Part shown: one piece after another, positions 1 through 42,991 of the stretch
How the letters are laid out: each line of letters opens with the position of its first letter
Position numbering within the stretch: position 1 is the first letter of the stretch
Assembly (NCBI GenBank): GCA_041242255.1
Contig: JBESAV010000001.1
Coordinates: 352,001-416,000 of the forward strand
Origin: Candidatus Altimarinota bacterium
GTDB taxonomy: Bacteria > Patescibacteriota > Gracilibacteria > UBA1369 > GCA-2718715
Length of the DNA: 64,000 bases
Direction of reading: 5' to 3'
The notes under the pieces: model-generated
Seen by the model: only the letters and a program-made list of their open reading frames with translations
Told to the model about the DNA's origin: nothing
The model's database searches: none
Program-made: the position numbers and the translations under genes

Positions 1-928
1 AACAACAGACCCAAGTTACGACGCTATTACAAGACTTCAAGAGTTAGGAATAGTTGAAGGAGTAACTCGAAATAACCAAGTTTTCTTCGAACCAGAAAGA
101 GAGATACTTCGTTCAGAATTCTCTAAAATCATCCTTGAGGCACTATGTCTAAGCCCATCTGCTCAGGCAAAACTATCACCTCAAGTATTCAGTGATATAC
201 CTTTCTCCCAAAATGATCCACTATGGTATTACGATTACACCAAAGAGACTCAGCTACTTGGACTATTCAATGGTTACTTAGCCGAGCAAGATCCTCAAAC
301 TGGTTTATATCCATTCAAGCCTGCTAATAGCATTACTCTAGCTGAAGCAACAAAAGTTATACTTGAGGCCCTTGAGTACAAATCCATCATCCAATTCGAT
401 CTCAACCCAAATCCAAACCAACCTTGGTACACTCAATACATTCAAATAGCCCAAGACTTATCTCCATACATCACAGACCAAGCTGCATCTACTAATCAAC
501 TCCAGAACAATCAGCTTCTTACAACTGCCGAAGCCTCAAATCCAAATCAGCTTATAACTCGTGAGGAATTTGCCATAATAGCTAGTCGAGTCTTGGATCT
601 ATACAATTGTTATGAACTCGAAGAGCAGTCTTCACAAGATCAAAGTTCTGAGGGCCAAAGCCCTGGAGATCAAGGCAATAACAACAATCAGTCTTCACAA
701 GACTCTGGTTCATCTCAAAATCAACAAAGCGAATCAATAGAGCTAATTTTCCCAAATCCTCAAAGACCAGGACTCTATATCGATCAAATCCCTTGTAATA
801 GCTGTCCTTGCGCATACACAATCAGCGATGAAAATGATATAATTAGAAGAGATATAATTTTCGCCATCCTCGAAGGACCAAATGGTGAAATTTATTCCCA
901 AAGTAATCTATTAACTATTACTCAGTGA
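1..928 (+). CDS. C-terminal part of an S-layer homology (SLH) domain surface protein (5' truncated by window)
   Basis: Frame 2 is open from base 2 to the TGA at 926-928, so the 593 start in the track is internal. SLH-like motifs: LQELGIVEG..LEPEREILRSEFSKII, FSDI..WYY..LGLFNGY..FKPANSITLAEATKVI, ITREEFAII. A Q/S/N linker follows, then a CNSCPC-containing tail. Confidence 0.8.
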   Translation, partial: TTDPSYDAITRLQELGIVEGVTRNNQVFFEPEREILRSEFSKIILEALCLSPSAQAKLSPQVFSDIPFSQNDPLWYYDYTKETQLLGLFNGYLAEQDPQTGLYPFKPANSITLAEATKVILEALEYKSIIQFDLNPNPNQPWYTQYIQIAQDLSPYITDQAASTNQLQNNQLLTTAEASNPNQLITREEFAIIASRVLDLYNCYELEEQSSQDQSSEGQSPGDQGNNNNQSSQDSGSSQNQQSESIELIFPNPQRPGLYIDQIPCNSCPCAYTISDENDIIRRDIIFAILEGPNGEIYSQSNLLTITQ

Positions 929-1482
929 TCAAAAAACACCTCCACAAATATAGTAGGGAAGTAAGTCTGGTGATTTTGACACTTTTCTTAAGTCTAACCA
1001 TCCTACCAAGACTAACACATTCCCAAGAGCAAGTATCCTGCCCTGACTTCACAGTGCAACAGATCAACCAAGCTAAGCAAACCTTTTACGACAACCTTCA
1101 AAATTTAGTTTCCGATTCTACCCCAGCTTCAACCAATTTAAATCTTATCTTTGAAGATTATCGTAATTTTCTTAGCCGTGCCTCGCTCTTTGTGCAGGAT
1201 AATTCTACAAATATAAATGATTCCGGAAACGTCCTTTCAGGCCCAGAAGCACAAAAGTGCAAGGAGATCCTTCAAGTTGAAAAGCAGACAGTCCAGACAA
1301 CTCTCAATAACACCCTCAAAGCCAGTATCTATGGAAAACAAAGTTTCAATCTATCTGAAAAATATTCTCAAATAAATCAACAATTCAATGACCTAAACAC
1401 AGAAACAAATCAAGTTACTCAAAAAGTAAAATCATTTAGCCAACAATTACCTTGTTATTCTCGCGCATGCGTACAAGACTAA
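925..1482 (+). CDS. Secreted hypothetical protein, helical, 4 Cys
   Basis: N-terminal signal peptide; GTGA overlap with upstream stop; ends LPCYSRACVQD. Confidence 0.75.
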   Translation: MIKKHLHKYSREVSLVILTLFLSLTILPRLTHSQEQVSCPDFTVQQINQAKQTFYDNLQNLVSDSTPASTNLNLIFEDYRNFLSRASLFVQDNSTNINDSGNVLSGPEAQKCKEILQVEKQTVQTTLNNTLKASIYGKQSFNLSEKYSQINQQFNDLNTETNQVTQKVKSFSQQLPCYSRACVQD

Positions 1483-2093
1483 AGCAAGCCATCGGATTTA
1501 TCATTTTTTCAATTGCACTTACCCTGCTAAGTCTCAACGTATACGCTCAAAGCCAAACTGACCCAGTAGTTAATGCTTTCGCCAATTTTCATTTTCAAAA
1601 CAACCAACTCCTCCAAAGCAAAACCCAACAACTCTTCGATTACTTCCAAGACTCAGAAGATACACTTCCTGAAGATTTCACCAATAAGTTCTCGCCACCT
1701 TTAGCTTTAGATTCCGAGTCATGTGCCGACAATCTATCTTCTAGTTGCCTAAACTACCTTTTTGAGGAAAACCTCAATCAACTCATACCACAGGTTCAAT
1801 CTTCACTAAACTTCGTTGAGGTGTCTAACCTTTCCAATATATCTGATTCCCAAGCCAGACAGTCCAGAGCTAGATTCCAGTTTATTCAAGATCAATTTGA
1901 TGCCTCACTAGATACAGTTGAGTCTTCTCTAAATTTTTATCAACAGCTTCTTCAAGCCTACCCAATGCATTTATCTTATGAATCAACAAAAGACGAACTA
2001 GATATTCTTATTTCAAATCTACAAGAACTTGAATCTTACGTAGATCAATATCCATCTAAATACAACAATGTTACAACACCTTACTGTCAGTAA
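1452..2093 (+). CDS. Secreted hypothetical protein, helical, 3 Cys (start may be ATG 1467)
   Basis: Signal peptide ending VYA|Q; overlaps neighbours; ends TTPYCQ. Confidence 0.75.
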   Translation: MLFSRMRTRLKQAIGFIIFSIALTLLSLNVYAQSQTDPVVNAFANFHFQNNQLLQSKTQQLFDYFQDSEDTLPEDFTNKFSPPLALDSESCADNLSSSCLNYLFEENLNQLIPQVQSSLNFVEVSNLSNISDSQARQSRARFQFIQDQFDASLDTVESSLNFYQQLLQAYPMHLSYESTKDELDILISNLQELESYVDQYPSKYNNVTTPYCQ

Positions 2094-3759
2094 GTTTATG
2101 ATATTTCTATCATTATTATTTTTTTTCCAGCAGTCACCACTGCCAGATTTTTTGTTGCAACAAACCAAAGCTCAGTTTCAGTCCTCTTACCAAGAAAGTT
2201 TAGATGAAGCCATTCACAATCTCCTTCAGGAGCAGGATCAACCATCACATAAAAGCCAGTTCTTATCTAATCTAGACATCTCATCTCCAGAGAAATTACC
2301 TACCCAAAACCTATACTTAAGAATCCTTAACAGCTTTACCAAAGAGCTAAAGCCATCCATCTACGAGGGTGTAAGTATAGTATCTAATCTAACTCCAGCT
2401 GAAGTTGAATCGATCCTTGAGTACAACAACCTAGCTCCAATTCAAAATCAATCAAATCTCTCACAGGTCCAAGATACCTTCAATAATATCCAAGAATTGT
2501 ACCTTCAAGAAAAAGATTTCTTTACTCAGTTAGCTAAGGTAAGACAGCAAGCAGTAATATATGAAATATTCTCAGACAACAATTCCCAAAACTCAGGGTT
2601 TGATTTAATGACTGACTTGAGCCAAATCGAGCAAAAACTTTTCTCTCAATCTTCAAACTCATCCATAAACTACCAAACTCCAGGAAGGTCAAACTTTTGG
2701 AGTAATTTTAACTCTCAACCATACATCTCCAACTTTTCTCCAGTTAACCTAACTACCTTTTCAAACTTTTCTTCCAATCAGAACAACAGCACGCCAACAA
2801 CCAATTCTCCAACCCCAACCTCAAACCAACCTAGTAGCCCAGGAAATCCGACCCAAGTTACTTTAGAACCAATCCCTGAATATCAATTTCCAACCATTCA
2901 GTACGGGGCAGTCTGTCAGTTTGATTCAAACCTTCAACAAGAGTTAGAAATTTACCAAACCAATAACTCAACTGAAGCATTAGAACAAGACAGCATTAAT
3001 TCACAAACCCCAACCTCAAACTTCTCAATCAACTCTGAAACAGATAGTCAAAGCTCAAATCAAACTCCATCTCAACAAATAGCAAATTACCAATCATCAG
3101 ATTTCAGCCTACCCTTCACTGGAATAAGCCAGTCTTGTCCCCCAGATCAAATATTCTGTTTCACCAGAGAGCTCAGATACAATCAGGTCGACCTTAAATA
3201 TCCAGCTCAGGAAGATTGTGTTTCTTGTCTCATAAACAGGCTAAATCAAGATCTACAAAATCTACTAGATAATGGTGTCCTACCTCAGAAAATCACTGGT
3301 AACTTCGGAGAACCAGCTCTTTGTAAAAAAGCCTCAGTTGGTAAAATAGGGTTAAATCTAAACATATTCAGCAAACCAATCTTACCTGAAGTTCCAACTC
3401 CAGATTACATAACTGACCTGGATCCTTATCAAACCCAAGATAATTCAATCAACCAAAACTCTGTATCAAATAGTGGTTTCTCCATCAAAAACGATACACA
3501 AACCAACAGAGACCTAAATCTTCTAGCTCAATCAAATGCACAACAATTCATTGATCAATTTGATCAAAACCTAAACAGATCCTACTCATCTAACAGCCAG
3601 GTAAATCAATCTATTCAAAACCAAGAAATTCATTTCCAAGAGCTAACTAGTCAAATGAACACCCTAAACCTTTACTTAGAATCATTCAACACCTCTTTAG
3701 ACCAACTAGATCAAAACTTTACTGAACTCATTAACCTACCAGAATGCTCAGAACTATAA
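2068..3759 (+). CDS. Secreted hypothetical protein with S/T/N/P linkers and Cys-rich domain (start may be 2098)
   Basis: Hydrophobic N-terminus; CPPDQIFC and CVSC motifs; heptad-like C-terminus ending LPECSEL. Confidence 0.75.
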   Translation: MLQHLTVSKFMIFLSLLFFFQQSPLPDFLLQQTKAQFQSSYQESLDEAIHNLLQEQDQPSHKSQFLSNLDISSPEKLPTQNLYLRILNSFTKELKPSIYEGVSIVSNLTPAEVESILEYNNLAPIQNQSNLSQVQDTFNNIQELYLQEKDFFTQLAKVRQQAVIYEIFSDNNSQNSGFDLMTDLSQIEQKLFSQSSNSSINYQTPGRSNFWSNFNSQPYISNFSPVNLTTFSNFSSNQNNSTPTTNSPTPTSNQPSSPGNPTQVTLEPIPEYQFPTIQYGAVCQFDSNLQQELEIYQTNNSTEALEQDSINSQTPTSNFSINSETDSQSSNQTPSQQIANYQSSDFSLPFTGISQSCPPDQIFCFTRELRYNQVDLKYPAQEDCVSCLINRLNQDLQNLLDNGVLPQKITGNFGEPALCKKASVGKIGLNLNIFSKPILPEVPTPDYITDLDPYQTQDNSINQNSVSNSGFSIKNDTQTNRDLNLLAQSNAQQFIDQFDQNLNRSYSSNSQVNQSIQNQEIHFQELTSQMNTLNLYLESFNTSLDQLDQNFTELINLPECSEL

Positions 3760-4898
3760 AAAACACATTCATCATCAGCCTTTTGGTATTCCTATCTGTT
3801 TCTCCAGTTACCAATGCTCAGTCAACCAGCTTTGAAGACAAAGCCACAAACTTAGGACAGTATTTATTACTTCAATTTGACGCAACAGATATTCTGGAAG
3901 ATTTCAAAACTGACCTTCTCCTTAATGAAAATTCATGTAAGCAAATTGATAAATTCCAAGTCCTTTCAGCCCAAAGTGATTTAGCTGATAGACTCCTGCT
4001 TGATTTTGAAACATTAAACGAGCAAGAAAGGCAGAGTATTATCAATAACTATCAAACCCTAGAGATTGAATACCAATTCCTCAACAACATAAGTAGCCTA
4101 ATCCAAAATGGATTCCAAGACGGCCAACCTCAGCATATCCGTCAGATTAAACAAGATTTACCACAAGACCTAAGACCTCAAGTAGACTCAATTTACAACT
4201 CCTTAGCTGTTAAGTATGAACCTCGCATTCAAAAACCAGATCCAGATAATCCTGATGAATTTATAGAAGGTGATTATCTCAACTGTCCAACTAGTTGGTC
4301 TTCACTTAAAGAAAGAGCTCAAAACCTCCAACTAGAGGTTCAACAAATCTCCGAAGAATGGGAGTCACTCAAACAAGCATTCCAAAATCTTAAAAAGTCA
4401 TCAGCCGATGCTGTAAGCCCGGCTAATTTAAAAAGCATATTTGTAGACAAACCAATCAACTCCATCTCAAACAGTGTCCAAGCAACAATTCAAAACCTAA
4501 AATCAGAAATCCAAAGAAATCAAAAAGAGTTTAACTCCATAAGCACCAATCCAATTCAAACTTATCAAAAAGTACTCCAAGAAAACGAAACCCTGCTCAC
4601 CAATAGAGCAGATATTGCGGGCTTACTACTAGGTAATTCAGACATAACTCAAGTAACCCAGGAGTTAAGTGAAAAGTCTCAGCTTCGTCAGTTATTTCAA
4701 TCAAAAATCGAACAACATGCTATCAACCAAATCACCGCCCAACATTTCGACTTAGGTATCCAAAACACACTCAACATAGCTTATCAAACTCCTCTCTTGG
4801 TTTCATACAACAAAGAAGTTTTCACTGAAACCAATCAAGAAGGTCTTCTTAATCTCTCAAAGCAGGTCTACGACCGTCAGTGTGTGGTCAATCCTTAA
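3744..4898 (+). CDS. Secreted coiled-coil hypothetical protein, 3 Cys
   Basis: Signal peptide ending TNA|Q; ends DRQCVVNP. Confidence 0.75.
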   Translation: MLRTIKNTFIISLLVFLSVSPVTNAQSTSFEDKATNLGQYLLLQFDATDILEDFKTDLLLNENSCKQIDKFQVLSAQSDLADRLLLDFETLNEQERQSIINNYQTLEIEYQFLNNISSLIQNGFQDGQPQHIRQIKQDLPQDLRPQVDSIYNSLAVKYEPRIQKPDPDNPDEFIEGDYLNCPTSWSSLKERAQNLQLEVQQISEEWESLKQAFQNLKKSSADAVSPANLKSIFVDKPINSISNSVQATIQNLKSEIQRNQKEFNSISTNPIQTYQKVLQENETLLTNRADIAGLLLGNSDITQVTQELSEKSQLRQLFQSKIEQHAINQITAQHFDLGIQNTLNIAYQTPLLVSYNKEVFTETNQEGLLNLSKQVYDRQCVVNP

Positions 4899-5613
4899 AG
4901 TAGTTCCCAATCAAGTCAGCCATCAATACAACAATCTCAGCCACCACACTGCTCAAAGGTAAAAGAGCTAAGTAAGCAAACCTCCAGATATCAGATCCTC
5001 CCTGGTACAAATTAAAGCTAAATAAAAGCCAAAATATAGAACCAACAAATACCCCAAGTAAAGTCGCTTGAAGCCTGTTTGCATGTTCAGCCTCCCGAAT
5101 ACTCGAAGCAATCAATCCAGAAAAAAGCACGAATATAGAAGAGCTCCAAAACAAATATTCTCCTCCCAAAGATAATGAATAAATCATAGCTGGTAGAAAC
5201 AAAGCTAGCATCAAGATCTGCCAAACAAAGTTTTTTACAGTTTTACCCAGTACAAATTTATAAGATTCTTTCTCGATAATTTTCACAAAATAATTCTGAA
5301 TGCTTTGCCCTATAAATAAACTCAAGCCACACAATAAAGTAAACACAGTCACAGTAGTAACCTCAAGATCACTAAATGCACTACCTCCAAACAAAGCTTC
5401 AACTCCAAACCAACTCGCCAGAACAAGCCCTATGGTTATCAATGAGCTCAAAAGGGAAGTTATAAACCTATTTAGGTAAACAAAGTAAACACTTGAATCA
5501 TCTTCATCTTTTTCAACTACTTTCTCTTCAGTAACAGCTTTTTCAGTAATCGTATTGGTAGTTTCTTCATTTGACTCATTCTGCGTTTCAGTTTTTTGAA
5601 CTTCTTCATTCAT
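4888..5613 (-). CDS. Multi-pass membrane hypothetical protein with acidic N-terminus
   Basis: About 6 hydrophobic segments; starts 3 nt downstream of lspA. Confidence 0.7.
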   Translation of the reverse strand: MNEEVQKTETQNESNEETTNTITEKAVTEEKVVEKDEDDSSVYFVYLNRFITSLLSSLITIGLVLASWFGVEALFGGSAFSDLEVTTVTVFTLLCGLSLFIGQSIQNYFVKIIEKESYKFVLGKTVKNFVWQILMLALFLPAMIYSLSLGGEYLFWSSSIFVLFSGLIASSIREAEHANRLQATLLGVFVGSIFWLLFSFNLYQGGSDIWRFAYLALLPLSSVVAEIVVLMADLIGNYFKD

Positions 5614-15124: not shown

Positions 15125-18100
15125 TTACGCTCCAGCTGGCACAAACCTAACTTTGCCAGATTCAGTCAGATTATTCATCAATTTTATAAGTTTTTCATCA
15201 ACCATTCCTTTACTTTTCTGATACATATTTATGATAACTCTTTTCTCTCCAAAGCTAAGGTTAGACAAATCCATAGCTCTATTTTTATCTTTAGCAGCAG
15301 ATAAAAATTTATTGAATTTCCCACCACCTACTAATCCAGCAGAAACACCACCAAGTCTCACCGCCCAGTTAGCTGGGTTACTAACACTTTTTTCAAACTC
15401 AGCAAAAATCTCAGCTTCTCTCCTACTCAACTTCGCCACCGCAATATCCAAACCAGCATTCAAACTAACATCTCCAACCATTTGGCCCGTAAAGTACAAA
15501 GCTTTCTCCCCACTAGACATAAGACCAGTACTAATAGCTTCGTCTCCAGTCAATAAACCTTTTTTTACAGCCTCAGTTGTTAATCCAGTACTTTTCTTGA
15601 GAGCTGATACTCTAAGAGCATTACCAAGTGAGCCACCTCCATATGCACCAAAGAAATTCACTCCTGCCTCTGCACCAATACCAATCATTGCTTCTTCTGT
15701 AGTGTCATAACCCTTTCCATAAATCACATGACTAGCCGTAGTAGCAATTGCCGCCACACTTGTTGCACCAACTAATAGGGAAGTACCACCCGTAAATGGT
15801 GTACTCAAAAGTGAAGCAGCTAAGCTTGCTCCTACCAGACCAGAAAACTTGGCGATAAATACTGCGTTGTGAAAAGTTTCATCAGATATATCCAGCCAAC
15901 CAAATCCTTGTACGTCGGACAAAGTTTCAACAAGTTTCTGTTCACCATTTGAAAACCCACCATCAAACCTTTCCATAAAGTCAGTCAGTCCTCCTGACTC
16001 TGTTAGGGCTTGTTTGGTTGTTTTTAGACAAAGTTCTTTGTAGTCATTAACTCCATTCACCAAGCTCCCTTGATATCTTTTTATATCTACATCGTAACCC
16101 TTCAATGAGTCTCGTAAAACTCTCAAAGTGATATATTTTTCAGAATATTCCTCTACACTTTTAGGTTCATCTAAAGCATGTTTCATAACTGTATCAAGCT
16201 CTCCACCACAAGCTTCATTTATAGCTTTTAACTTATCTTTACTAATTTCACCTAAATCTGATTTAAGCTCATTTTTATATTGCCTGTAATTATTTATCAA
16301 ATTATTGCTAGGGGAGTCCCAGTTACTAGTCACCATCTTTTCTGGTAATCTCAAAGCCTCAACCATTAGAATCAAAGCTGAACTTCCAGATTCTAGTTCC
16401 ATATCAATACTCTCACCTCTACCTGAGATAAACTTCGCAAGTTTATTCACTTTTTCTAAATACTGACTGTAGTCTTCAGGTTTTGACCCAGTGGCCACAA
16501 CTAAATCTCTTTCATTATTTAAATAATTTCTCAAAATATAAAAACATCTCTCGTTAAAATTCTTATAAACTTTTCTAAGGTTTTCACTCTGAAAATTATT
16601 GCTATCTATTTCGGCAGATTTATCTACAAAGTACTCATAAGCTTTCTCAAAGCTTCCAAGGTTTATCATATAGTCACTAACCCTCTTCAACCCCATCTCT
16701 TCATTTAAAGCATTCTTATCTTCTCTTGAGTCACCAATATTTAAGCTTAAATCAATAAACCTGCTACTTTCCTCCTGAATTTTTTCGCCAAGTTTAACTC
16801 TGAAACTAGACTCAATCGGTAATCTGTCATACTTCGCTTGAAGTCTATTGATCTTGTAACCAACAACTTTTACAGCCATATCCATCAAATCTCCTTCTTT
16901 CAAGCTATCTTCATCATAATCAATATCACTGAAGTCAGATTGAAGTTTTTCCAAAAAATCCATATTTGCAAATGCCCCAAGATTCTCAACCCAACCATCA
17001 ACGCTTTCTAGATCACTAACTTCAAAAAACTCTTCGTAGCCACTTATTGATTGATAGTTTTTCCATTCTAAAAGAAATTCTCCTTCAAAAATCTTATCTT
17101 CTAACCTTACCAAAGCCTCACTATCTCCAGCTCTCTCAAATATTTCACGGTTAAATTTCAAATCCAAAATCTGATTCTCCAATTCTTCAAAGCTAGCTTC
17201 TTCATTAAACTCTTTGTTCAGATCCTGTTTCGCACCTTCCAAATCATACTCAGCTTGTAGACTTCTTACATTAAACTCAACCACAGAGTTGGTATAAATT
17301 TTAACAGAACTCTCCTCTCCATTCACACCATCCTCAAGCTTTCTCCCGATCAATCTATCACTTCCACTTTCATAGTTCTTCACTACCATTTTCTCATCAC
17401 CGCGGCTAATTATTCCACCTTCAATCTGACCTTCCATCTCAAAATCTTCTAACAAATCTTGTAACCTAATGAATTTTGCAAAATTATCAAATCTCTCAAA
17501 AAATTCTTCCGAGAGCTTATCTTTATACTTATCTAAAACATCAAACTTCACTACAAACCCATTTGGTGTAGCTCGTGTGAACAAATCTCTAAATAGATCC
17601 CTTTCTTGTGTCACAAAATCACGATAGTCCTTTTTTTCTTTCAGTCTCAACACTTTTCTGACCATAACTTCATCAACTCCCATTTCTTCAAGTGATTTCC
17701 TCTGAATCTGCAGTCGATCAGCCAATAAGTCATTAAAACCATCTATTTGCTTTAAACTAAAAGCCGTAAATCCACTTTTAGGTTTAAAGTTTTCAAAAAT
17801 CCTATCTAACTTAGCAGCACCATCAACTACACTTTTAAACTTCTCATCTAAATCAACATTCATCTTAACCAAGTCATCATCCAGCTCAGGAACTATAAAT
17901 AAACTCAGATCAGTCTCAGATTCCTGCCCAGAATATTTCGACAGTAAAATAGCTGACTCACTCAGTAAATCACCCTTCTCTTCAACTCTTTTCCTCTCCT
18001 CTTCTCGCACTCTAACTTTTTCAGCCACATATTCCAAAATGAACTCTGTAACCTTTTGATCAACTTTATCAATTATTTCATTTTTCTCAGCGTCCCCCCA

Positions 18101-18322
18101 TATATTCTCTGTATTTTCTTCTAGTTTAGAGATCTCATTCAGCAAAATATTCCATTTTTCACGTCTATCTCTTGGTAGTTTATCAGTTGTTTTTTGAGCC
18201 TTCAAAACTAACTCTTTCATTCTTTCTTTAGGGTCTTTTGATTTCAGGTCAAGGTTATCATCCATTTCCTGGATTTCTCTAAAATCGTCCGGAGAACTAA
18301 CAAAACCACCTAAAGCCATCAT
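15125..18322 (-). CDS. Large acidic helical hypothetical protein with C-terminal Gly/Ala-rich hydrophobic region
   Basis: 1065-aa ORF, E/D/K-rich; C-terminal GLVGASLAASLLSTPFTGGTSLLVGA and GxxxG repeats. Confidence 0.75.
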   Translation of the reverse strand: MMALGGFVSSPDDFREIQEMDDNLDLKSKDPKERMKELVLKAQKTTDKLPRDRREKWNILLNEISKLEENTENIWGDAEKNEIIDKVDQKVTEFILEYVAEKVRVREEERKRVEEKGDLLSESAILLSKYSGQESETDLSLFIVPELDDDLVKMNVDLDEKFKSVVDGAAKLDRIFENFKPKSGFTAFSLKQIDGFNDLLADRLQIQRKSLEEMGVDEVMVRKVLRLKEKKDYRDFVTQERDLFRDLFTRATPNGFVVKFDVLDKYKDKLSEEFFERFDNFAKFIRLQDLLEDFEMEGQIEGGIISRGDEKMVVKNYESGSDRLIGRKLEDGVNGEESSVKIYTNSVVEFNVRSLQAEYDLEGAKQDLNKEFNEEASFEELENQILDLKFNREIFERAGDSEALVRLEDKIFEGEFLLEWKNYQSISGYEEFFEVSDLESVDGWVENLGAFANMDFLEKLQSDFSDIDYDEDSLKEGDLMDMAVKVVGYKINRLQAKYDRLPIESSFRVKLGEKIQEESSRFIDLSLNIGDSREDKNALNEEMGLKRVSDYMINLGSFEKAYEYFVDKSAEIDSNNFQSENLRKVYKNFNERCFYILRNYLNNERDLVVATGSKPEDYSQYLEKVNKLAKFISGRGESIDMELESGSSALILMVEALRLPEKMVTSNWDSPSNNLINNYRQYKNELKSDLGEISKDKLKAINEACGGELDTVMKHALDEPKSVEEYSEKYITLRVLRDSLKGYDVDIKRYQGSLVNGVNDYKELCLKTTKQALTESGGLTDFMERFDGGFSNGEQKLVETLSDVQGFGWLDISDETFHNAVFIAKFSGLVGASLAASLLSTPFTGGTSLLVGATSVAAIATTASHVIYGKGYDTTEEAMIGIGAEAGVNFFGAYGGGSLGNALRVSALKKSTGLTTEAVKKGLLTGDEAISTGLMSSGEKALYFTGQMVGDVSLNAGLDIAVAKLSRREAEIFAEFEKSVSNPANWAVRLGGVSAGLVGGGKFNKFLSAAKDKNRAMDLSNLSFGEKRVIINMYQKSKGMVDEKLIKLMNNLTESGKVRFVPAGA

Positions 18323-20527: not shown

Positions 20528-21751
20528 ATGTCTCTCACTTTATTAATAATTTCTCTAGTCTCTGGACTTCTGACTGTACTAGCTCCATGTGTTCTCCCAC
20601 TCCTACCAGTCATCATCGGGGGGAGCCTAAGCAAAGATAAACTAAGACCACCATATCTGATCATCACATCGCTTTGTCTTTCTATTGTGATTTTCACTAT
20701 TCTACTGAAAACCAGCGTCGTTTCACTTGGCCTCCATCCTAATACTATCAAGTACTTCTCAGCAGGATTAGTTTTACTACTAGGTATCATCACACTCTTC
20801 CCTCAAATCTGGGATAAACTGAGCTTCAAACTAGGGCTATCTCAAGGTTCAAACCAACTCCTAGAAAAAGCCAACACCAAAAGTGGTGCAGTAAAAGATA
20901 TTTTAACAGGTATATCATTAGGTCCAGTTTTCTCCAGTTGTAGCCCGACCTATTTCCTTATCTTAGCAACAGTTTTACCTCAAAACTTTTTCAATGGATT
21001 AATAGCTCTATTAGTTTACTCATTTGGTTTATCTTTAAGTTTATTTGCCATTTCCATTCTCGGACAAAAGCTAGTTAAAAAACTAAAGTGGGCCGCCAAT
21101 CCGCATGGAAACTTCAAGAAAGTTATTGGTGTTATTTTCATTTTAGTTTCAATCGCAATTTTCACCGGATTCGATAAAAAAATAGAAGCCAAGATCTTAG
21201 ACAGCGGATTCTTTGATGTCACTCAATTCGAGAACCAACTATTAGAAAAAACCGAACCAATGCCAGAGGAAGAATCTTCAAGTCCAGAGGCATCAAACCC
21301 AAACCTTCAATCCTACACAGAGATAAAGGGCCCAACCGACTATCTAAACACGGATGAAGAGTTCCTCCTACAAGATCTAGTAGGAGAAAAAGTGGTTCTA
21401 GTAAATTTTATGACTTATGAATGTATCAACTGCCAAAGAACTTTTCCATACACCAACGATTGGTACGAAAAATATCAAGATCAAGGCCTAGAAATTGTAG
21501 GAATCCACACCCCTGAATTCAATCACGAAAAAAACATTAACAACGTCGAGGCAGCCCTTGAAAGATTTGATATCCAGTTTCCAGTCGTTTTAGACAACAA
21601 CAAAGAAACTTGGCGTGCATACCAAAATAGATTTTGGCCAAGAAGGTACATCATCGATAAAGATGGCTACGTAGTTTACGACCATATCGGAGAAGGGGAG
21701 TATGAAGAAACCGAAAAAGTTATCCAAGAAGAATTAGCTCGACTAAACTAA
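20528..21751 (+). CDS. DipZ-like CcdA/DsbD membrane domain fused to thioredoxin
   Basis: APCVLPLLP and FSSCSP in the TM domain; TYECINCQR, GIHTPEF and NRFWP in the Trx domain. Confidence 0.88.
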   Translation: MSLTLLIISLVSGLLTVLAPCVLPLLPVIIGGSLSKDKLRPPYLIITSLCLSIVIFTILLKTSVVSLGLHPNTIKYFSAGLVLLLGIITLFPQIWDKLSFKLGLSQGSNQLLEKANTKSGAVKDILTGISLGPVFSSCSPTYFLILATVLPQNFFNGLIALLVYSFGLSLSLFAISILGQKLVKKLKWAANPHGNFKKVIGVIFILVSIAIFTGFDKKIEAKILDSGFFDVTQFENQLLEKTEPMPEEESSSPEASNPNLQSYTEIKGPTDYLNTDEEFLLQDLVGEKVVLVNFMTYECINCQRTFPYTNDWYEKYQDQGLEIVGIHTPEFNHEKNINNVEAALERFDIQFPVVLDNNKETWRAYQNRFWPRRYIIDKDGYVVYDHIGEGEYEETEKVIQEELARLN

Positions 21752-35951: not shown

Positions 35952-36425
35952 TTAAATTTTACATTTTCCATTCCAACAACCATATCTTATCTGCCTATCC
36001 ACAAGAAGTACACCCACAAGAGCCAAAGCAATACCTAAAAACTGAGCCCAACCAGCAAAAACATTCAGGAAGTTCAAAGTAAAGTTAAACCCAAGAATAG
36101 ACACGATAGGTAAGTAGCAAGCAAAACAAACCGTTGATAAAATCCACATCAAGAATCCTACTCCACCAAGACTGGTTAAGCTCACATCATTCTGGATTTT
36201 CTCATTTTTAAATATCTCGTAAACCCCAATCACATTAATAGCCAAAAGCAGACTTATAACTAAAGCAAAGAAGACATTTCCCATGCTTAAGTTATAACCA
36301 ACTACACAAGAGTTACCAGTGCTAGCCGGTGTTCTCCAAAGTATCAAAACTGTGATATTGAAGATCACCAAGCTAACAAAAGCAAGACCCAGTCTGTATT
36401 CTTTATTACTTAGCCAATTCAGCAT
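35952..36425 (-). CDS. Four-TM membrane protein with CxxC, coupled to DsbA
   Basis: CFAC at the end of TM3, a loop Cys and a C-terminal CWNGKC; overlaps the dsbA stop. Confidence 0.7.
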   Translation of the reverse strand: MLNWLSNKEYRLGLAFVSLVIFNITVLILWRTPASTGNSCVVGYNLSMGNVFFALVISLLLAINVIGVYEIFKNEKIQNDVSLTSLGGVGFLMWILSTVCFACYLPIVSILGFNFTLNFLNVFAGWAQFLGIALALVGVLLVDRQIRYGCWNGKCKI

Positions 36426-37101
36426 CTATAGCAGCTTTAATTTCTGAGTATGGATACGCTCCATTGAAAAATACTCCATTCACAAAAATAGCAGGAGTTC
36501 CGTTGATTCCAAGTTCAGTAGCCTGCATCAAATCTTTCTCAACTCTAGCAATTGTATCATTGTTATCCGAACAGCTTCTAAGTTCTTCCATATCCAAGCT
36601 TTCAACATCAGCTATCCAATCAAATATATTCGTTTTACTCAAAGGTCCAGTTTTAGCCACCATATTGTCAAAGATTCTGTTGTGAACTTCAAAGTAGGCT
36701 TCATCTCCACCTTGATCGTAAGCACATTCAGCTATCACAGCAGCACCAACAGCATTTGGATGAATAGCTTCAAGAGGTAAGTCTTTGAATACTACTTTTA
36801 CTAAACCTTGATCAACATATTCGTTTTTAATATTGTCATAAGACTGACTGTAGTGCCTTGCACAGTAAGGACACTCATAGTCAGAAAACTCTACAATTGT
36901 AACCGGTGCATCTTCATCTCCAAGTACTGGGTCCTCATCATCAATCTGAATCTCAGTAACCTGCCCATTTGATAAAGGCACCTCAACATCAGGAAGATTT
37001 GATTGACCAACAAAGTAACCAGCTCCAAAAGAGGTCCCCAGTGCCATCAATCCAACCAACACGGCTGCAACAGTAAAAACTATATCATTATCTTTTTTCA
37101 T
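36406..37101 (-). CDS. Membrane-anchored DsbA/BdbD-like thiol-disulfide oxidoreductase
   Basis: EFSDYECPYC and cis-Pro GTP; TGTTATAAT at 37128-37136. Confidence 0.9.
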   Translation of the reverse strand: MKKDNDIVFTVAAVLVGLMALGTSFGAGYFVGQSNLPDVEVPLSNGQVTEIQIDDEDPVLGDEDAPVTIVEFSDYECPYCARHYSQSYDNIKNEYVDQGLVKVVFKDLPLEAIHPNAVGAAVIAECAYDQGGDEAYFEVHNRIFDNMVAKTGPLSKTNIFDWIADVESLDMEELRSCSDNNDTIARVEKDLMQATELGINGTPAIFVNGVFFNGAYPYSEIKAAIDAELAK

Positions 37102-37189: not shown

Positions 37190-38314
37190 TTATTGGATAA
37201 CTCCAGCTCCAAGACACAAATCATCTTTATAAAAAACCACAAACTGCCCAGATGCAATTCCTTGATCATCTTCATCAATCTGTAGCTTTAAACCATTTGC
37301 AACCCTCTCTACACTTTCAAGCCCATATCTTTTTTCACCATGTCTAAGTTTAACTGTACATTCCTTCAATTCATCCAGACTTGGCTCCTTGGTTAGCCAA
37401 TTAAATTCATCAACTACCAATGTGTTTCTAACTTTATCATCTTCAAAATACTCACGTGACACAAAAACAATATTCTTTTCTACATCTTTTTTTACCACAT
37501 ACCAAGGCCCACCACCCAAGCCAATGCCTTTCCTTTGTCCTCTTGTATAAAAGTAAAATCCATCGTGCTCTCCAATCTCTTCTCCTGTATCAAAGTCCAC
37601 AATTTTACCTTTCTTAACTCCTAGGTAATGCTCAATGAAATCTCTAAATTTCAATTTACCCAAAAAGCAAATACCTTGGCTATCTTTTCTGTTTTTATTG
37701 ATCAGATCAAAGCTTTCAGCTAGTTCTCTAACTTCATTTTTTTCAAAACAACCAATCGGAAAAATCAGATTCTCAATCTGCTCATCTTTAAGATAACTCA
37801 AAAAGTAGGTTTGATCCTTTATATTATCCGGAGCTAACTTCATTTCTTGCCCCTTATCACTTTTCCAAGCATAGTGCCCCGAAGCTATTAAGTCATATTC
37901 TTTATCCTCCATATAGTCTACAAAAGCCCCAAACTTAATCCTAGAGTTACACATAACATCCGGATTAGGAGTTCTACCTCTCTTTACCTCATTGATAGTA
38001 TAAGACACAACTTTATCAAAGTATTCCTTTTGCAAAGGCACGATCTCAAACTCGCACCCTATGTCGTCACAAACACCTTCCACAAATTTCATATCATCTT
38101 CCCAAGGACAATCACCACCCAAAAATCTCACTTCATCTTCAAGCCAGATCTTTAGATAGTATGCTTTCACATCAGCTCCAAAGTGCTTAAGCAAGGCTAA
38201 AGCTACAGAGCTATCAACTCCACCAGATACAAGCACAGCGATCTTTTTACCTTGTATATCACCGAGGTAATTAGATGCTTTCTTAAGCAATATGTCTTGG
38301 ACTGACTTCAACAT
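37190..38314 (-). CDS. mnmA: tRNA 2-thiouridine(34) synthase
   Basis: SGGVDS, NPDVMCN, GHYA, KDQTYFL and DSQGICF. Confidence 0.96.
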   Translation of the reverse strand: MLKSVQDILLKKASNYLGDIQGKKIAVLVSGGVDSSVALALLKHFGADVKAYYLKIWLEDEVRFLGGDCPWEDDMKFVEGVCDDIGCEFEIVPLQKEYFDKVVSYTINEVKRGRTPNPDVMCNSRIKFGAFVDYMEDKEYDLIASGHYAWKSDKGQEMKLAPDNIKDQTYFLSYLKDEQIENLIFPIGCFEKNEVRELAESFDLINKNRKDSQGICFLGKLKFRDFIEHYLGVKKGKIVDFDTGEEIGEHDGFYFYTRGQRKGIGLGGGPWYVVKKDVEKNIVFVSREYFEDDKVRNTLVVDEFNWLTKEPSLDELKECTVKLRHGEKRYGLESVERVANGLKLQIDEDDQGIASGQFVVFYKDDLCLGAGVIQ

Positions 38315-41300
38315 CTTTAACTAAATTATCTTTTTCAACTTCCTCAACCTGTTCAGATTTATCACGTAGGAAAATTGTAAACAAAATAGGAATAATCATC
38401 AAAGTCAAAAAAGTAGCAGTGGTCAAACCAAAGATCACACTAAATCCTAGCCCTCTCCAAAACTCATCAGATATAGTAATTGGCAACAGACCAAATACAG
38501 TAGTAATAGTCGTCAGCATGATTGGCACAAACCTTAGTTTACAAGCTGCAATAATTGCTTCTTTAAGTTTCATATTTGACTCATATCTATTTCGATTGAT
38601 TTGGTCAACCATCACAATTGCATCATTCACAACAATTCCAGTCAACATTACTACCCCAAGGAAAGCAGGGAAGCTCAATGGTAAACCAAGCAAAGACAAA
38701 CCAGGAAAAATACCAATTATAGCCAAAGGTAAAGTACAGAGAATAATAAATGTTTGCCTAAACGAATTAAACTGAGTAACCAGAATTATCAATATCAAAA
38801 TAACTGCAACAATCATCGAGCTAAACAACTCAGTAAATGACTCTTGCACATCTTCATCTTCACCACCAATCTCTACAAAATAACCAGATGGCAGCTCAAG
38901 ATTTTCTAATACAGTCTCAACTTCTGGCAAAATCTCAGCTAAAACAACATCTTCTCTTATATCAGATCTAATTCTTACAGTTCTTTCCTGATCAATTCTA
39001 GGAATCGACTGTAAAGCATCACTTTCACTAATTCTAGCAAGTGAGCTAAAAGGTATAAATCCAGCTTGAGTAGGCACTAACGTATTGTACAGTTCACTGT
39101 AGGTTTTAGTTTCATTATTATCCAACCATACCCGTATTTCAGTCGCTTCACCATCAATCTGAATCTCTCCAGCCTCAGAACCATTCACAAGGCTTTGTAG
39201 AGTTTGAGCCACACTTTGTTTATTCAGCCCATAATAAGAAAGTCTTTCTTCATCTAACTCAATCTCTAACTCATTTTTATTATTATCAAAGTCAGAGCGT
39301 ATATTCACCAGCTCTTCCACTCCAGAAAGATCAGCCTTAATAGTTTCAGTTATCTCTTGCAGTGACTCCAATCCAGGTCCACTCAATCTAATCTCAATCG
39401 GTGCAGCAGCCGGAGGCCCAGCACTAATTGATTCAACACTTATGTCTAGCGCTGATTCAACCTCTTCATATTCAGCTCTAAGCTCTTCCGAGATTACATA
39501 TGATTTCTTCCTATCAGTATCTTCATCTGTAAGATTCACTACAACATATCCTAGATAGTCACCAGTTTCGCCACCATTCCCAGAAGGATCAGTACTAATC
39601 GAGCTCCCGTAGTTGATCGTATAGTTTTTAATGTATTCTTTATCTCTCAAAATATCTTCCACAATTCCTGATAACTCCTGCGTTTCTTCAAGGCGGGTTC
39701 CAATAGGTGCTTCAAAGTTTATATATACAAATGGAGTATCTGCTTCAGGGAAAAGTTGAGCCTTCAGTATTCCGGTTACAGGCAAAGCCATACTCCCAAC
39801 AAAGCAAACCAACGTCACAAACAAAATCAAACCTCTTGCAATTCGGTTATTCAAAATATTTTCTAAAATAGATGCATATCTGTCTTTTATTCCTTCAATA
39901 AATTTTTCTTTCAAAGATAGTTTTCTTTCCTTATCACGAGAAAATCTTTCAAATACATCAATCAGTTTCACAGACAAAAGGGGAGTCACAGCAAAACTCA
40001 CCAGTAGTGAAGCCCCAAGCGTTATCGACAAAACAATTGGTATTGTTCGTATGTATTCACCCACGATTCCAGATACCAAAAGCATAGGAGCAAAAGCAGA
40101 GAGTGTCGTTAAAGTTCCAGCAACCAAAGGCCATTTATATTGATCTAAAGTTTCTTTTGCAGCATCTATTGTATTTCTTCCTTCTTTTTTAAACTCATAA
40201 ATACCTTCTACAATTACCACCGAAGTATCTACTATTAGACCCAAAGATAAAATAAGTGAAAAGATAGTTAAACCATTCAAAGTCTCATCAGCCCAGTACA
40301 ACACTCCAAAAGTAATCAAGAAAATCATTGGTATAGCAATAGATGCAACTAAAGCTTCCTTTACAGAAAGAACCAGCAATATAGCTACAAATATAACCAA
40401 AATAGTCTGAACCCCAGATGAAGAGAGAGTACTTAAATCATTTTTAATGAAATACGCATTATCATTGGTTTTCACAATTCGTACTCCTTCCTCTAAACTC
40501 TCAGAAATCTCTGCAGCCTTCTCATCTACTTGGTTTACAATATCTACGATATTTCCTCCTGAAGACTTAAAGACATTTAGAGTTATGGCTCTTTCAGCAC
40601 TTCCTTCACCTTCATAAACATAAGAAAGAGTACTTTGTTCTACAGGTTCAATATTCACATACGCAACATCCCCAATCGTTAGAAGTTCAAGTCCACCATC
40701 CTGAGAAACGTTACTCAAAGGTAAATTTCTTATCATCTCTACCGAATTTTTCTCACCTCTTATTCTTACGTTAATTTTAGATAAATCCCTTTCAACTTCA
40801 CCAATCGGTAAATTAAGGTTCCCAACCTGAATAGCTTGTATGATTTGACCAGGAGTAACGCCGTAGAACTCTGCCACCAAGCTATCCAATATAATAGTTA
40901 TTTCTTCTTCATAGTCACCAATAATTTCAACATTTGAAACACCACTTATACTTTCTATCTCAGTAGCAACTTCATCCGCTACCTCTGACAACTCTTTAAA
41001 CTCTTTATCCCCAACTACACTTAAAGAAACAATCGACATACTATTAAAGTCTAGCTCCATCACTTCAGGATCTTCAGCTAACTCAGGTAGTCTTCCAGCA
41101 ACTTGATTAGCAGCTTCTGTCAGGTCTGAAATCACCTCAGACGTATCAGCAGAAGTATCAAACTGAACTGTAATAATAGAAATATTACTTCTTGAAGTAG
41201 AAGTAATACTATCCACATCATCTAAGCTTTGAAACTCTTTCTCTAACTCAACAGTAACATTTTGCTCCACATCTAGAGCGGACGCGTTTGGGTAAACTGT

Positions 41301-41450
41301 TTGAACTATCCCAATCGGCTGATTTATCTCAGGGTTAGACTCGATATCGACATTCAGGACTCCAAAAACACCAACCAACAAGATGGCCATTACCAGCAAA
41401 AAAGTAACCCTCGATTTTTCTATAAAGTTAAACCAAATACTTCTTTTCAT
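38283..41450 (-). CDS. RND efflux permease (AcrB/SwrC-like)
   Basis: 1055 aa; GLIVDTSVVIVE, GIVVNDAIV and RFVPIMLTT. Confidence 0.92.
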   Translation of the reverse strand: MKRSIWFNFIEKSRVTFLLVMAILLVGVFGVLNVDIESNPEINQPIGIVQTVYPNASALDVEQNVTVELEKEFQSLDDVDSITSTSRSNISIITVQFDTSADTSEVISDLTEAANQVAGRLPELAEDPEVMELDFNSMSIVSLSVVGDKEFKELSEVADEVATEIESISGVSNVEIIGDYEEEITIILDSLVAEFYGVTPGQIIQAIQVGNLNLPIGEVERDLSKINVRIRGEKNSVEMIRNLPLSNVSQDGGLELLTIGDVAYVNIEPVEQSTLSYVYEGEGSAERAITLNVFKSSGGNIVDIVNQVDEKAAEISESLEEGVRIVKTNDNAYFIKNDLSTLSSSGVQTILVIFVAILLVLSVKEALVASIAIPMIFLITFGVLYWADETLNGLTIFSLILSLGLIVDTSVVIVEGIYEFKKEGRNTIDAAKETLDQYKWPLVAGTLTTLSAFAPMLLVSGIVGEYIRTIPIVLSITLGASLLVSFAVTPLLSVKLIDVFERFSRDKERKLSLKEKFIEGIKDRYASILENILNNRIARGLILFVTLVCFVGSMALPVTGILKAQLFPEADTPFVYINFEAPIGTRLEETQELSGIVEDILRDKEYIKNYTINYGSSISTDPSGNGGETGDYLGYVVVNLTDEDTDRKKSYVISEELRAEYEEVESALDISVESISAGPPAAAPIEIRLSGPGLESLQEITETIKADLSGVEELVNIRSDFDNNKNELEIELDEERLSYYGLNKQSVAQTLQSLVNGSEAGEIQIDGEATEIRVWLDNNETKTYSELYNTLVPTQAGFIPFSSLARISESDALQSIPRIDQERTVRIRSDIREDVVLAEILPEVETVLENLELPSGYFVEIGGEDEDVQESFTELFSSMIVAVILILIILVTQFNSFRQTFIILCTLPLAIIGIFPGLSLLGLPLSFPAFLGVVMLTGIVVNDAIVMVDQINRNRYESNMKLKEAIIAACKLRFVPIMLTTITTVFGLLPITISDEFWRGLGFSVIFGLTTATFLTLMIIPILFTIFLRDKSEQVEEVEKDNLVKDVEVSPRHIA

Positions 41451-42991
41451 TATTTAAAGCTAATCAATTTTGAAGCCTCTTCCAAAACTATCTCATCACC
41501 TTCTTGAAGACCTCCCACAACCTGTATCTTCCCAGCTTGTATCGGACCTTTTACATCCACTTGTTTATATAGAATCTCATTTCCAGATTTAACTGCAGCA
41601 AAGTATTCATTATTATCAATTTTCAAAGATCTAAATGGAACAACCGTTGCAGCAATAATATCCGAACCACCTTTCTCAATTTTAAAATTAACTTTTGCAA
41701 AAGCATTTGCGATCAAGTTTCCATTATCACTCAAATTTCCAATTTTAACTTTAATCAATCTGCTTCTTTCATCTGCAATCAAAGCAACATTCTTTACCTC
41801 TCCATCATATTTTTCTCCGGCGTATACAACCTCAATCTCATCACCTTTCTGAAGTAAGGAAGCCTGCTCAAGTGAAACAAAAACCTCAATTTGCTTATTC
41901 ATTTCAGAGCTTATCAAAATATAATTCATCCCAGGGGTAGTCTTTTGTCCAACATTTAAATCAATATCAAGTACAGTCCCATCTACAGGTGCAGTAACCA
42001 CTGTCTGATCAAGTTGAACTTTAGCTAAAGCAACTTGAGCCTCTGCTTGATTAATCTGACTCATAAGCTGATTAATATTTAAATCCGTTGCAACTCTTTG
42101 AGAGGCAATCTGATTTCTTAAAGATTCTATTTGCAATCGTGCGTTTTCAATCTGCTGAATATTTCTTACATCAGTATAATAATTCTGAGCAGCTTGTAGC
42201 TGTCTTTGACCATATTCAAGGTTGCCTTGTGCTTCCTCTAAATCTTCTTGTGCACTTTCAAAGTCATATTGATTCTCAAGGTCACCACCCAAAAACTCAC
42301 CTAGGTTTTCGTTTACAATATTTCCTATAGTTTTCTCTAGCGATGGAGTATTCGCTGAAATCTCGTTACCTATCTCTTCAACTTCTTTACCCATATCTTC
42401 CACACCCAACTGTCTCGCAGCCAAATCTCTAGAAGAATTCAAGCTCAAAACTGCTTGCTCCAAAGCTATGTCAGCAGTTGCAAGTTGGATTCTATAACTA
42501 TTTTCAGAAATTCCAGCATTCTGTCTAGTCAGATCTAAAGATCTGTATGCATTTGCCAATTGTTTTTCAGCACTATCTAAGTTTATGGCTAACTGTTTAG
42601 TTGCAGTATTTTCAGCTAATTTGAAAAGTACATCACCTTTCTTAACTTCACTTCCTGCCTCTACTAAGATCTCTTCTACAGTCGAACTCAAATCACTTCC
42701 TACTTCTACCTGATCACTCAAAGTGACAATCCCAGTTCTACTAAAGCTATTATCTCTCAAGTCAGACCTTACCGGATCTTTATAGGTAATTGTCTCATAT
42801 TCTAAAGGAGGTTCATTCTCATTTGGTTCTTCAGAATCTTCATTCTCAATTGGATCATTATCAACGATTACAACCTCTTCCTTTCTGCTTTCGTTGATAA
42901 GGTATATCCCTCCATAAATAATTACACCAACTACCAAAAGACTCAAAAAAGTTCTCACAACATTTTTCAAAGCATCTACAACAATTGACAT
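41450..42991 (-). CDS. RND membrane fusion (adaptor) protein with long coiled coil
   Basis: N-terminal TM; VKKGDVL and TAPVDG lipoyl halves; GLQEGD. Confidence 0.85.
   Translation of the reverse strand: MSIVVDALKNVVRTFLSLLVVGVIIYGGIYLINESRKEEVVIVDNDPIENEDSEEPNENEPPLEYETITYKDPVRSDLRDNSFSRTGIVTLSDQVEVGSDLSSTVEEILVEAGSEVKKGDVLFKLAENTATKQLAINLDSAEKQLANAYRSLDLTRQNAGISENSYRIQLATADIALEQAVLSLNSSRDLAARQLGVEDMGKEVEEIGNEISANTPSLEKTIGNIVNENLGEFLGGDLENQYDFESAQEDLEEAQGNLEYGQRQLQAAQNYYTDVRNIQQIENARLQIESLRNQIASQRVATDLNINQLMSQINQAEAQVALAKVQLDQTVVTAPVDGTVLDIDLNVGQKTTPGMNYILISSEMNKQIEVFVSLEQASLLQKGDEIEVVYAGEKYDGEVKNVALIADERSRLIKVKIGNLSDNGNLIANAFAKVNFKIEKGGSDIIAATVVPFRSLKIDNNEYFAAVKSGNEILYKQVDVKGPIQAGKIQVVGGLQEGDEIVLEEASKLISFK

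Follow-up and report, generated by a model that had tools for sequence, protein, structure and literature searches.

What kind of structure is specified by a block of five overlapping genes in which a protein with surface-layer homology (SLH) motifs is followed by four exported proteins that each end close to a cysteine? The question is raised by positions 1-4898 of a 64-kb stretch of the genome of a Candidatus Altimarinota bacterium [GenBank: JBESAV010000001.1, positions 352,001 to 416,000]. The whole of this stretch is called the window in this work; all coordinates refer to it unless another locus is named, and the genes of the block are numbered 1 to 5 along the + strand. A preliminary description, made from the nucleotide sequence, proposed that the four exported proteins co-assemble through C-terminal helices locked by inter-subunit disulfides into a wall-anchored complex. 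Here we have analyzed the five genes, their counterparts in other genomes and their surroundings, and show that they form a real, conserved and undescribed operon, which probably encodes a genuine, co-assembling complex of the cell surface or wall zone.

In the accessible parts of the literature giant surface proteins have been noted in such genomes (PMC4736985, PMC8080830), and both Cys-rich and SLH surface proteins are mentioned for these lineages; the accessible parts of the main texts contain no description of the present operon. The operon is conserved across deeply diverged genomes, keeps a fixed chromosomal place and is linked to a giant surface protein. Besides the latter it comprises four protein families without a known relative, of which that of gene 4 is large (241 clusters). 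It supplies concrete candidate partners for a giant surface protein of ultra-small bacteria, with the single positioned Cys residues as a handle.

Organization and conservation of the operon

The coordinates of the open reading frames (ORFs; Table 1) confirmed the five co-directional genes of the preliminary description, which overlap by 4, 31, 26 and 16 nucleotides in the window. A genome scan with the 22 closest gene 4 sequences as the query gave 38 pattern matches, three of which were confirmed: one on a Candidatus Peribacteria contig (L001), one on a Patescibacteria-group contig (L002) and one in an unclassified bacterium (L003). Together with the window they make up the four loci compared below, gene 5 being cut off in L003. 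An analogous scan with the gene 5 alignment gave 46 pattern matches, none of which was confirmed.

The five genes stand in the identical order in all three related loci, as had been expected from the preliminary description. A giant SLH protein with CxxCPC and about 40 further amino acids is followed by a protein of about 190 amino acids ending in C-x4-C-x2-3, a third protein of about 220 amino acids with a YPxH motif and a C-x end, the gene 4 orthologue, whose terminal Cys has one to three residues behind it (KPQCSAL, KSKCE and KPVCE), and a fifth protein of about 400 amino acids with a QC-x1-2 end. Overlaps are found at 15 of the 16 junctions of the four loci, the exception being a gap of 7 nucleotides in L001, and such overlapping or nearly abutting junctions suit co-translated subunits. 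Promoter-like sites inside the block are not in excess (8 found versus 15.8 expected), and terminator-like sites number 4 versus 3.4 expected. The product of gene 4 in the window is 22-25% identical to its orthologues from L001-L003, and a gene order shared despite such divergence indicates that the arrangement is old and vertically kept. The tblastn search with gene 4 gave no match in 72,556 plasmids and 50,697 phages, and no paralogues of genes 2-5 were found elsewhere in the window. Positions 1-4898 hold the 3′ part of an operon that is inherited vertically and coupled in translation, in a Peregrinibacteria-like bacterium of the candidate phyla radiation.

The surroundings are partly shared as well. 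Beyond the operon come lspA, on the other strand, and ftsW, both in the window and in L001 and L002, the two related loci with downstream sequence; in the window murG lies after ftsW. The multi-pass membrane protein of 241 amino acids encoded between gene 5 and lspA (Table 1) is 26% identical (E 4e-5) to the protein encoded at the same place in L002 and is a conserved neighbour; it matched no Pfam or NCBIfam family. A gene of the SPFH/Band_7 type lies 3′ of gene 5 in L001 (7190-7984 of that locus) and L002 (10131-10880), and not in the window.

The giant SLH protein

The orthologues of gene 1 reach 879, 2027 and 1511 amino acids before their contigs end, which are lower bounds, and such lengths imply that the window holds only the last 308 amino acids of a giant protein, whose remainder lies beyond the start of the window. 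The SLH anchor with a CNSCPC tail of the preliminary description was thereby recovered in its motifs and revised in its nature, being a fragment of a giant protein and not a small anchor. Residues 3-40 of the fragment matched Pfam SLH (PF00395) with E 6.7e-8 (32.8 bits, cut-off 20.8); the L001 orthologue did so with E 7e-6, and the L002 orthologue, with 19.5 bits, fell just under the cut-off. A profile built from gene 1 and its orthologues matched the SLH structures of Bacillus anthracis Sap (E 1.5e-8) and, weakly but over a wide span, the SLH structure of SpaA (E 0.15). Two further SLH-like repeats are seen by eye at ..ITLAEATKVILEAL.. and ..ITREEFAIIASRVL..; Pfam itself gives one stretch only, at residues 3-40. 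Judged by these matches, gene 1 belongs to the SLH proteins. No csaB-like gene was found among the scanned ORFs of the window.

The CxxCPC motif lies 38 to 46 residues before the end of the protein in all four loci, with about 38 amino acids beyond CNSCPC in the gene 1 fragment. Neither the four loci nor two additional relatives, P0168 and P0169, depart from it; in P0168 and P0169 the linker consists of TSP3 repeats instead of the Q/S-rich stretch. The residues C49, C203, C265, C268 and C270 of the fragment are invariant in the four loci. Cohesin, dockerin and S-layer lattice domains were not found in gene 1 or its orthologues, and a profile of the L002 giant protein gave no match to PDB sequences.

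A second SLH protein is encoded in the window at 52761-53609 on the - strand; it combines SH3_3 and SLH domains (E 5.3e-12) and shares 29% identity with gene 1 in the SLH region.

Positions and conservation of the cysteines

The proteins of genes 2-5 end in ..RACVQD, ..PYCQ, ..PECSEL and ..RQCVVNP and contain 4, 3, 7 and 3 Cys, respectively, in agreement with the preliminary description. Among 56 ORFs of the window, eight have a Cys within the last six residues, and four of these are the consecutive genes 2-5. With Cys making up 0.79% of residues the chance of this is 0.047 for a single protein and about 5e-6 for a run of four proteins, so the near-terminal Cys residues exceed chance. The operon proteins are low in Cys (0.8-2.2%).

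The near-terminal Cys of genes 2-5 is kept in the three related loci. In gene 2, C39, C112, C177 and C182 are invariant in all four loci, the last two forming the C-terminal CxxxxC; in gene 3 the same holds for C91, C99 and the penultimate C212 (2085-2087), to which L002 adds an extra pair. For gene 4, counts out of 150 refer to the best 150 of the 241 clusters of its family: C283, C357 and C364 are present in 150/150 and C384, C387 and C419 in 148/150, among them both Cys of the CVSC motif (C384 and C387) singled out in the preliminary description, and the terminal C560 (3745-3747) is invariant in the 22 closest clusters. In gene 5, C65, C181 and C380 (4881-4883) are invariant in 10 of 10 sequences, seven relatives and the L001 and L002 copies included.

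The mature proteins contain 4 Cys in each of the four loci for gene 2; 3, 3, 5 and 3 for gene 3; 7 in each of the four for gene 4; and 3, 3 and 4 in the three complete copies of gene 5, two of which are thus odd. Parity is even for gene 2, always odd for genes 3 and 4 and usually odd for gene 5, and the odd Cys is the one adjoining the C-terminus.

The family of gene 4

Exhaustive search of 1.84 billion representatives with gene 4 gave 241 clusters (at 50% identity) at E ≤ 1e-3, 83 at E ≤ 1e-10 and 4 at E ≤ 1e-30. The best 150 of the 241 are mostly 470-700 amino acids long with a signal-like N-terminus, and among ten clusters looked up the only annotation was 'hypothetical protein'. The protein comprises an N-terminal helical domain, a disordered middle rich in S, T, N and P, a six-Cys core, a C-terminal helix of 70 residues and C560. 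The motif given in the preliminary description as EIFSDN..NSGFDL..DL..IE proved conserved in 70 sequences of the family, with E166, F168, F178, L180, D183, L184 and I187 at ≥ 90% and D179 invariant. An AlphaFold2 (AF2) model based on 150 sequences, with a mean predicted local distance difference test score (pLDDT) of 68.6, shows a confident helical domain at residues 41-200 (block means 83-95), disorder at 221-355, a poorly defined Cys core (low confidence at 357-387) and a single long helix at 485-555, directly before LPECSEL.

Fold searches with this model found nothing at E ≤ 0.001 in the PDB (best E 4.2) or among viral structures of BFVD (best E 0.46), and the ESM Atlas offered nothing usable for gene 4 or gene 5 (best score 0.78 for the latter). 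The family profile gave a weak coiled-coil-type match to DotF (E 0.0087) among PDB sequences. No Pfam domain is shared by 70 family members, and no thioredoxin-type Pfam domain was detected in gene 4 or 70 relatives. The family deserves a definition of its own even if the operon should serve plain surface architecture.

At the position of the conserved CxxC, 85 of the 150 relatives (within P0009-P0158) have CxxCH, with the consensus NCIACHxEKI and the spacing of haem c attachment, and in 26 of the 150 a Glu directly follows the CxxC. The c-type cytochrome motif CxxCH is absent from gene 4 of the window, which reads CVSCL (residues 384-388, 3217-3231), and the His is likewise absent from the 22 closest relatives.

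Genes 2, 3 and 5 and sequence composition

The N-termini of genes 2-5 are hydrophobic and signal-like, of the Sec type with A|Q-type sites, and A25-Q26 of gene 5 is invariant in the alignment of its relatives. No Pfam, NCBIfam or PHROGs family was matched above threshold by any of the four; the PDB searches, and the fold search for gene 4, likewise placed none of them in a described family. Neither genes 2-5 nor the orthologous proteins contain a lipobox L-[AS]-[GA]-C; in gene 2 the residues before the first Cys of the mature chain are Q-V-S, T-A-T, Q-I-K or E-Q-V. The preliminary description had left room for the terminal Cys as a sorting signal, which the sequences do not support: between 1 and 4 residues follow the Cys, there is no hydrophobic tail, and the LPXTG/sortase, PEP-CTERM, GlyGly-CTERM and MYXO-CTERM signals are all absent. 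Since genes 2-5 themselves contribute neither a wall-binding module nor a lipobox or sorting module, retention of their products on the cell would need a partner.

The true start of gene 3 may be the ATG at codon 6. In its AYPMH motif (1956-1970), named in the preliminary description, Y170, P171 and H173 (YPxH) are invariant in the four loci. Gene 5 has seven relatives of 47-60% identity with a strongly conserved SKQVYDRQCVVNP end; its AF2 model is all-helical and unreliable (mean pLDDT 47.1). Profile searches of the PDB gave weak coiled-coil-type matches, to keratin for gene 5 (E 0.057) and to Lpp for gene 2 (E 0.019), and nothing under E 0.69 for gene 3. Comparison of the families of genes 2-5 with hhalign gave a probability of at best 39.5%, for the C-terminal parts of genes 2 and 3, and ≤ 2.5% for the others, and they seem to be four separate protein families, not detectably related.

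The heptad-like C-terminal helices noted earlier were recovered for genes 2, 3 and 4: in a crude test on the last 56 amino acids before the tail, the share of 1000 shuffles reaching the observed value was 0, 0.01 and 0, respectively, in the window, with mixed support for genes 2 and 3 in the other loci. The Q-rich bodies likewise stand as an observation, genes 1-5 lying at the top of the + strand range of Gln content, and have to be read against the composition of the strand. The asymmetry between the strands is extreme: in each of the 2-kb blocks of the 64 kb the + strand shows a negative GC skew (-0.09 to -0.45), whatever the gene direction. Genes on the + strand contain 2.5-12% Gln and little Glu; those on the - strand have 0.7-6.4% Gln, and in them Glu often amounts to about 10%. 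The Q-richness is thus explained in part by composition, through the large surplus of C over G on the + strand. According to the accessible part of one study, a disparity of similar kind (29.8% C vs 15.0% G) occurs in some Microgenomates genomes, and the Peregrinibacteria genomes then known had ordinary skew (PMC7143001).

A proposed model of the complex and the points against it

Tentatively, we favour the reading that the operon encodes a complex co-assembling at the surface or in the wall zone on the giant SLH protein, with the positioned Cys residues as covalent or metal-bridged latches. The giant protein, more than 2000 amino acids long, would be pinned to the cell wall by SLH repeats near its C-terminus, behind which a flexible linker would carry a small C-terminal module with CxxCPC. 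The mostly helical products of genes 2-5, predicted to be exported by Sec (signal peptide and A|Q cleavage-type site), would be produced at a constant ratio to the giant protein and would assemble with it or with each other into a single surface or wall-zone structure that serves cell-surface architecture or host-cell attachment. The terminal Cys residues of genes 3, 4 and 5, which have no obvious partner in the same chain, and the three Cys of the tail would then form disulfide latches or a shared metal site. We infer the assembly, the latch chemistry and the attachment role; as far as sequences can tell, a disulfide latch is plausible. A more far-reaching version, which we consider doubtful, makes gene 4 the mark of a widespread unnamed apparatus of ultra-small bacteria, in which the CxxCPC of a giant wall-anchored fibre would be latched covalently, through one Cys for each, to the products of genes 3, 4 and 5, that of gene 2 would be self-closed, and the whole would form the base or tip of a host-holding or host-opening organ.

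The synteny, the odd Cys parity of genes 3 and 4 in all four loci and a DsbA-like oxidase gene in the window (Table 1) argue for the co-assembly through disulfides put forward in the preliminary description. Several observations weigh against it. In no result do two operon proteins make contact; the co-folding score of mature gene 2, mature gene 5 and residues 470-563 of gene 4 with mature gene 3 (0.11 versus a mark of 0.32) counts neither for nor against, coming from a run with uncertain partner fold and no controls. Export and outward orientation of the giant protein are assumed, its N-terminus lying outside every locus, and the alignments of genes 2 and 3 rest on four sequences only. The heptad claim did not hold for gene 5, for which 0.97, 0.90 and 0.96 of the shuffles reached the observed value in the three loci, that is, there is no signal. 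The gene 5 copy of L002 has a fourth Cys and hence an even count. That three unpaired Cys stand opposite three Cys of CxxCPC is suggestive arithmetic only and not evidence.

The terminal Cys, conserved in the related loci and in the closest gene 4 clusters, is also not a constant of the wider gene 4 family. It is found in the last five residues in 103 of the 150 relatives and is absent from 47, most of which carry one lone Cys some 10-12 residues before the end. A second Cys lies within the last 20 residues in 67 of the 103, with an even Cys total in 55 of the 67, which fits an intramolecular loop and means that an inter-subunit disulfide is no family-wide rule; the remaining 36 relatives, with the terminal Cys only, have an odd total in 27 cases. 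By these counts the free terminal Cys is a trait of the gene 4 branch of the window and not of the whole family. Finally, at 8 of 12 junctions (4/4 for genes 2 and 3, 3/4 for genes 4 and 5 and 1/4 for genes 3 and 4) the next gene has its first start codon lying across a near-terminal Cys codon (xxN TGY), so that part of the Cys conservation could arise at the level of DNA.

Alternative explanations

Taken to its end, this last point yields an explanation in which the near-terminal Cys is a by-product of gene overlap and there is no shared Cys chemistry: a start codon in the -1 phase forces Cys or Trp in the upstream protein. Besides the 8 of 12 junctions, the dual coding of the conserved N-termini of genes 3, 4 and 5 (M-x4-M/L, ML/R..L...K and MRI/MLR, respectively), which share bases with the upstream tails, fits it. 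We nevertheless hold it to be very unlikely, as gene 5 has no co-directional gene downstream and its C380 is invariant in 10/10 sequences, the Cys of gene 3 lies away from the start codon in three of four loci, Trp (TGG) would do equally well and is never seen, and the odd Cys parity is kept. If the Cys residues are functional, they might be metal ligands, with CxxCPC and the Cx6C...CxxC of gene 4 binding Zn, Cu or Fe (haem in the CxxCH relatives) and the terminal Cys completing a shared site. CxxC and CPC are classic metal-binding spacings, many such organisms are anaerobic, and external disulfides are less stable there. The spacings found here, the anaerobic lifestyle, the near-invariance of C357, C364, C384 and C387 and the His or Glu that follows the conserved CxxC in 85 and 26 of the 150 relatives would all suit such a role, which is rather unlikely given that the window gene and all 22 of its closest relatives have no such His, that a DsbA-like oxidase is encoded in the window and that no metal-binding family was matched.

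The remaining alternatives concern what the proteins build. The block could be a wall-zone (periplasm-like) scaffold for envelope growth or division and not a host-attachment organ, in which case its constant position near lspA, ftsW and murG would point to a housekeeping function. This is unlikely and has some points in its favour: lspA and ftsW adjoin the operon in the window, L001 and L002 despite the deep divergence, L001 and L002 have an SPFH/Band_7 gene after gene 5, and the lack of plasmid and phage matches suits core chromosomal genes. Conserved neighbourhoods in small genomes may, however, be mere inherited synteny; lspA is on the opposite strand, genes 2-5 have no lipobox, and nothing ties them to peptidoglycan enzymes. 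We regard it as quite unlikely that genes 2-5 encode secreted multi-component helical effectors forming a pore or translocon in the host membrane, in the manner of tripartite toxins, with the giant protein only joining the cells. The four proteins are exported, helical, encoded in one operon and without enzyme motif, gene 2 matches the alpha-xenorhabdolysin subunit B (XaxB) with E 0.014 (14.8 bits, cut-off 40) and gene 3 the pore-forming ESAT-6 family with E 0.13, both below threshold, and, according to the accessible part of PMC8080830, relatives of this lineage are believed to use host cells as food. The toxin matches are far under threshold and confined to stretches of coiled-coil character, no solved pore-forming toxin resembles the gene 4 model, and no amphipathic beta-tongue or hydrophobic hairpin is seen by eye. 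The preliminary description also named minor pilins of the VirB5/TrbJ type as one possible analogy; applied to genes 2 and 3, with a type IV secretion or pilus system as the setting, this is close to refuted. Size (185-213 amino acids), signal peptide and helical character are all that speaks for it; no VirB5/TrbJ or pilin family was matched in Pfam or NCBIfam even at E ≤ 1, PDB searches with the profiles of genes 2 and 3 yielded no structure of this kind, genes for type IV secretion or pili are missing from the 57 scanned ORFs of the window and do not adjoin the operon in L001 and L002, and there is no prepilin leader.

Comparison with known systems

For the favoured model, a complex on the giant SLH protein, the closest parallels in working would be wall-anchored scaffolds that dock subunits and surface layers locked by disulfides. 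Scaffoldins of Clostridium thermocellum are anchored through SLH domains at the C-terminus. The gene 1 product resembles these anchoring scaffoldins in that its SLH region lies near the C-terminus of a very long protein, which could dock subunits, and its SLH module matches both Pfam SLH and the structures of SLH-anchored B. anthracis Sap. It differs from both in the conserved CxxCPC module behind the SLH region, in that searches revealed neither cohesin nor dockerin nor S-layer lattice domains, and in the four putative partners, which stand outside known families. ExsY/CotY of the Bacillus exosporium and the chlamydial outer membrane complex are disulfide-cross-linked envelope layers. With these the operon shares conserved, apparently unpaired Cys residues on exported proteins, by which an assembly could be locked covalently outside the cytoplasm, and an oxidase gene is present here; there is no kinship in sequence, and the present proteins have a single positioned Cys and are not Cys-rich.

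Type IV pilus tip complexes, in which minor pilins are combined with the large adhesin PilY1/PilC, offer a looser likeness: genes for several small exported proteins stand next to that of one very large presumed adhesin, the CxxxxC of gene 2 is reminiscent of a disulfide loop, and in many relatives of gene 4 two Cys are about 8-9 residues apart. In contrast to type IV pilus and VirB5/TrbJ proteins, genes 2-5 have no (pre)pilin leader (short and basic, with Gly at its end, ahead of a hydrophobic helix that has Glu at +5) at their N-termini and no pilin, VirB5 or TrbJ match, and there is no pilus or secretion ATPase nearby. Helical pore-forming toxins (Hbl/Nhe, XaxAB) are similar as Sec-exported helical proteins without enzyme motifs encoded in an operon, and different in that the matches are below threshold, gene 4 has no fold match and the present genes are linked to a wall-anchored giant protein.

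Redox genes and other features of the window

The coordinates of the operon, its motifs and further relevant genes are collected in Table 1. The multi-pass membrane protein of 157 amino acids whose gene overlaps that of the DsbA-like protein could be an unrecognised partner of the DsbB or VKOR type, and the fusion of a CcdA/DsbD-type and a thioredoxin-like domain is likely an exporter of reducing power to the outside. The presence of the DsbA-like protein and of this fusion makes thiol-disulfide chemistry outside the cytoplasm possible.

Table 1 Features of the operon and of the redox genes in the window
Feature	Position	Strand	Remarks
Gene 1	2..928	+	5′-open ORF, 308 amino acids; SLH region, Q/S/N-rich linker, CxxCPC tail
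CNSCPC motif	794..811	+	Residues 265-270 of the gene 1 fragment, 39-44 residues from the C-terminus
Gene 2	925..1482	+	Exported helical protein, 185 amino acids; 4 conserved Cys including C-terminal CxxxxC
Gene 3	1452..2093	+	Exported helical protein, 213 amino acids; YPxH; three Cys
Gene 4	2068..3759	+	Exported protein, 563 amino acids; hallmark of a large unnamed family
EIF..D.GFDL..DL..IE motif of gene 4	2563-2631	+	Conserved columns
CVSC motif of gene 4	3217-3228	+	C384 and C387, present in 148/150
Gene 5	3744..4898	+	Exported helical protein, 384 amino acids; three invariant Cys
Dual-coded start regions of genes 3, 4 and 5	1450-1470, 2067-2087, 3742-3747	+	Same junctions in L001-L003
Convergent neighbour	4888..5613	-	Multi-pass membrane protein, 241 amino acids, acidic N-terminus
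CcdA/DsbD-type membrane domain fused to thioredoxin/AhpC-TSA-like domain	20528-21751	+	Membrane domain match weak (E ~1e-4)
Multi-pass membrane protein overlapping the DsbA-like gene	within 35952-37101	-	157 amino acids; CFAC, C-terminal CWNGKC; no Pfam match
Membrane-anchored DsbA-like protein	36406-37101	-	CPYC site; from the scan of window ORFs

Two further ORFs of the window belong to no Pfam family, one Glu-rich and of 1065 amino acids (15125-18322, - strand), the other Q/S-rich and 3′-open (63158-64000, + strand). The regions 38283-42991 (- strand), 44647-46029 (+ strand) and 47949-49403 (+ strand) specify an RND pump of the AcrB type, together with an adaptor of the HlyD type, and two proteins similar to photolyases or cryptochromes. 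Both the pump and the photolyases are unexpected for a small-genome bacterium of this kind, and the latter hint at a light-exposed habitat.

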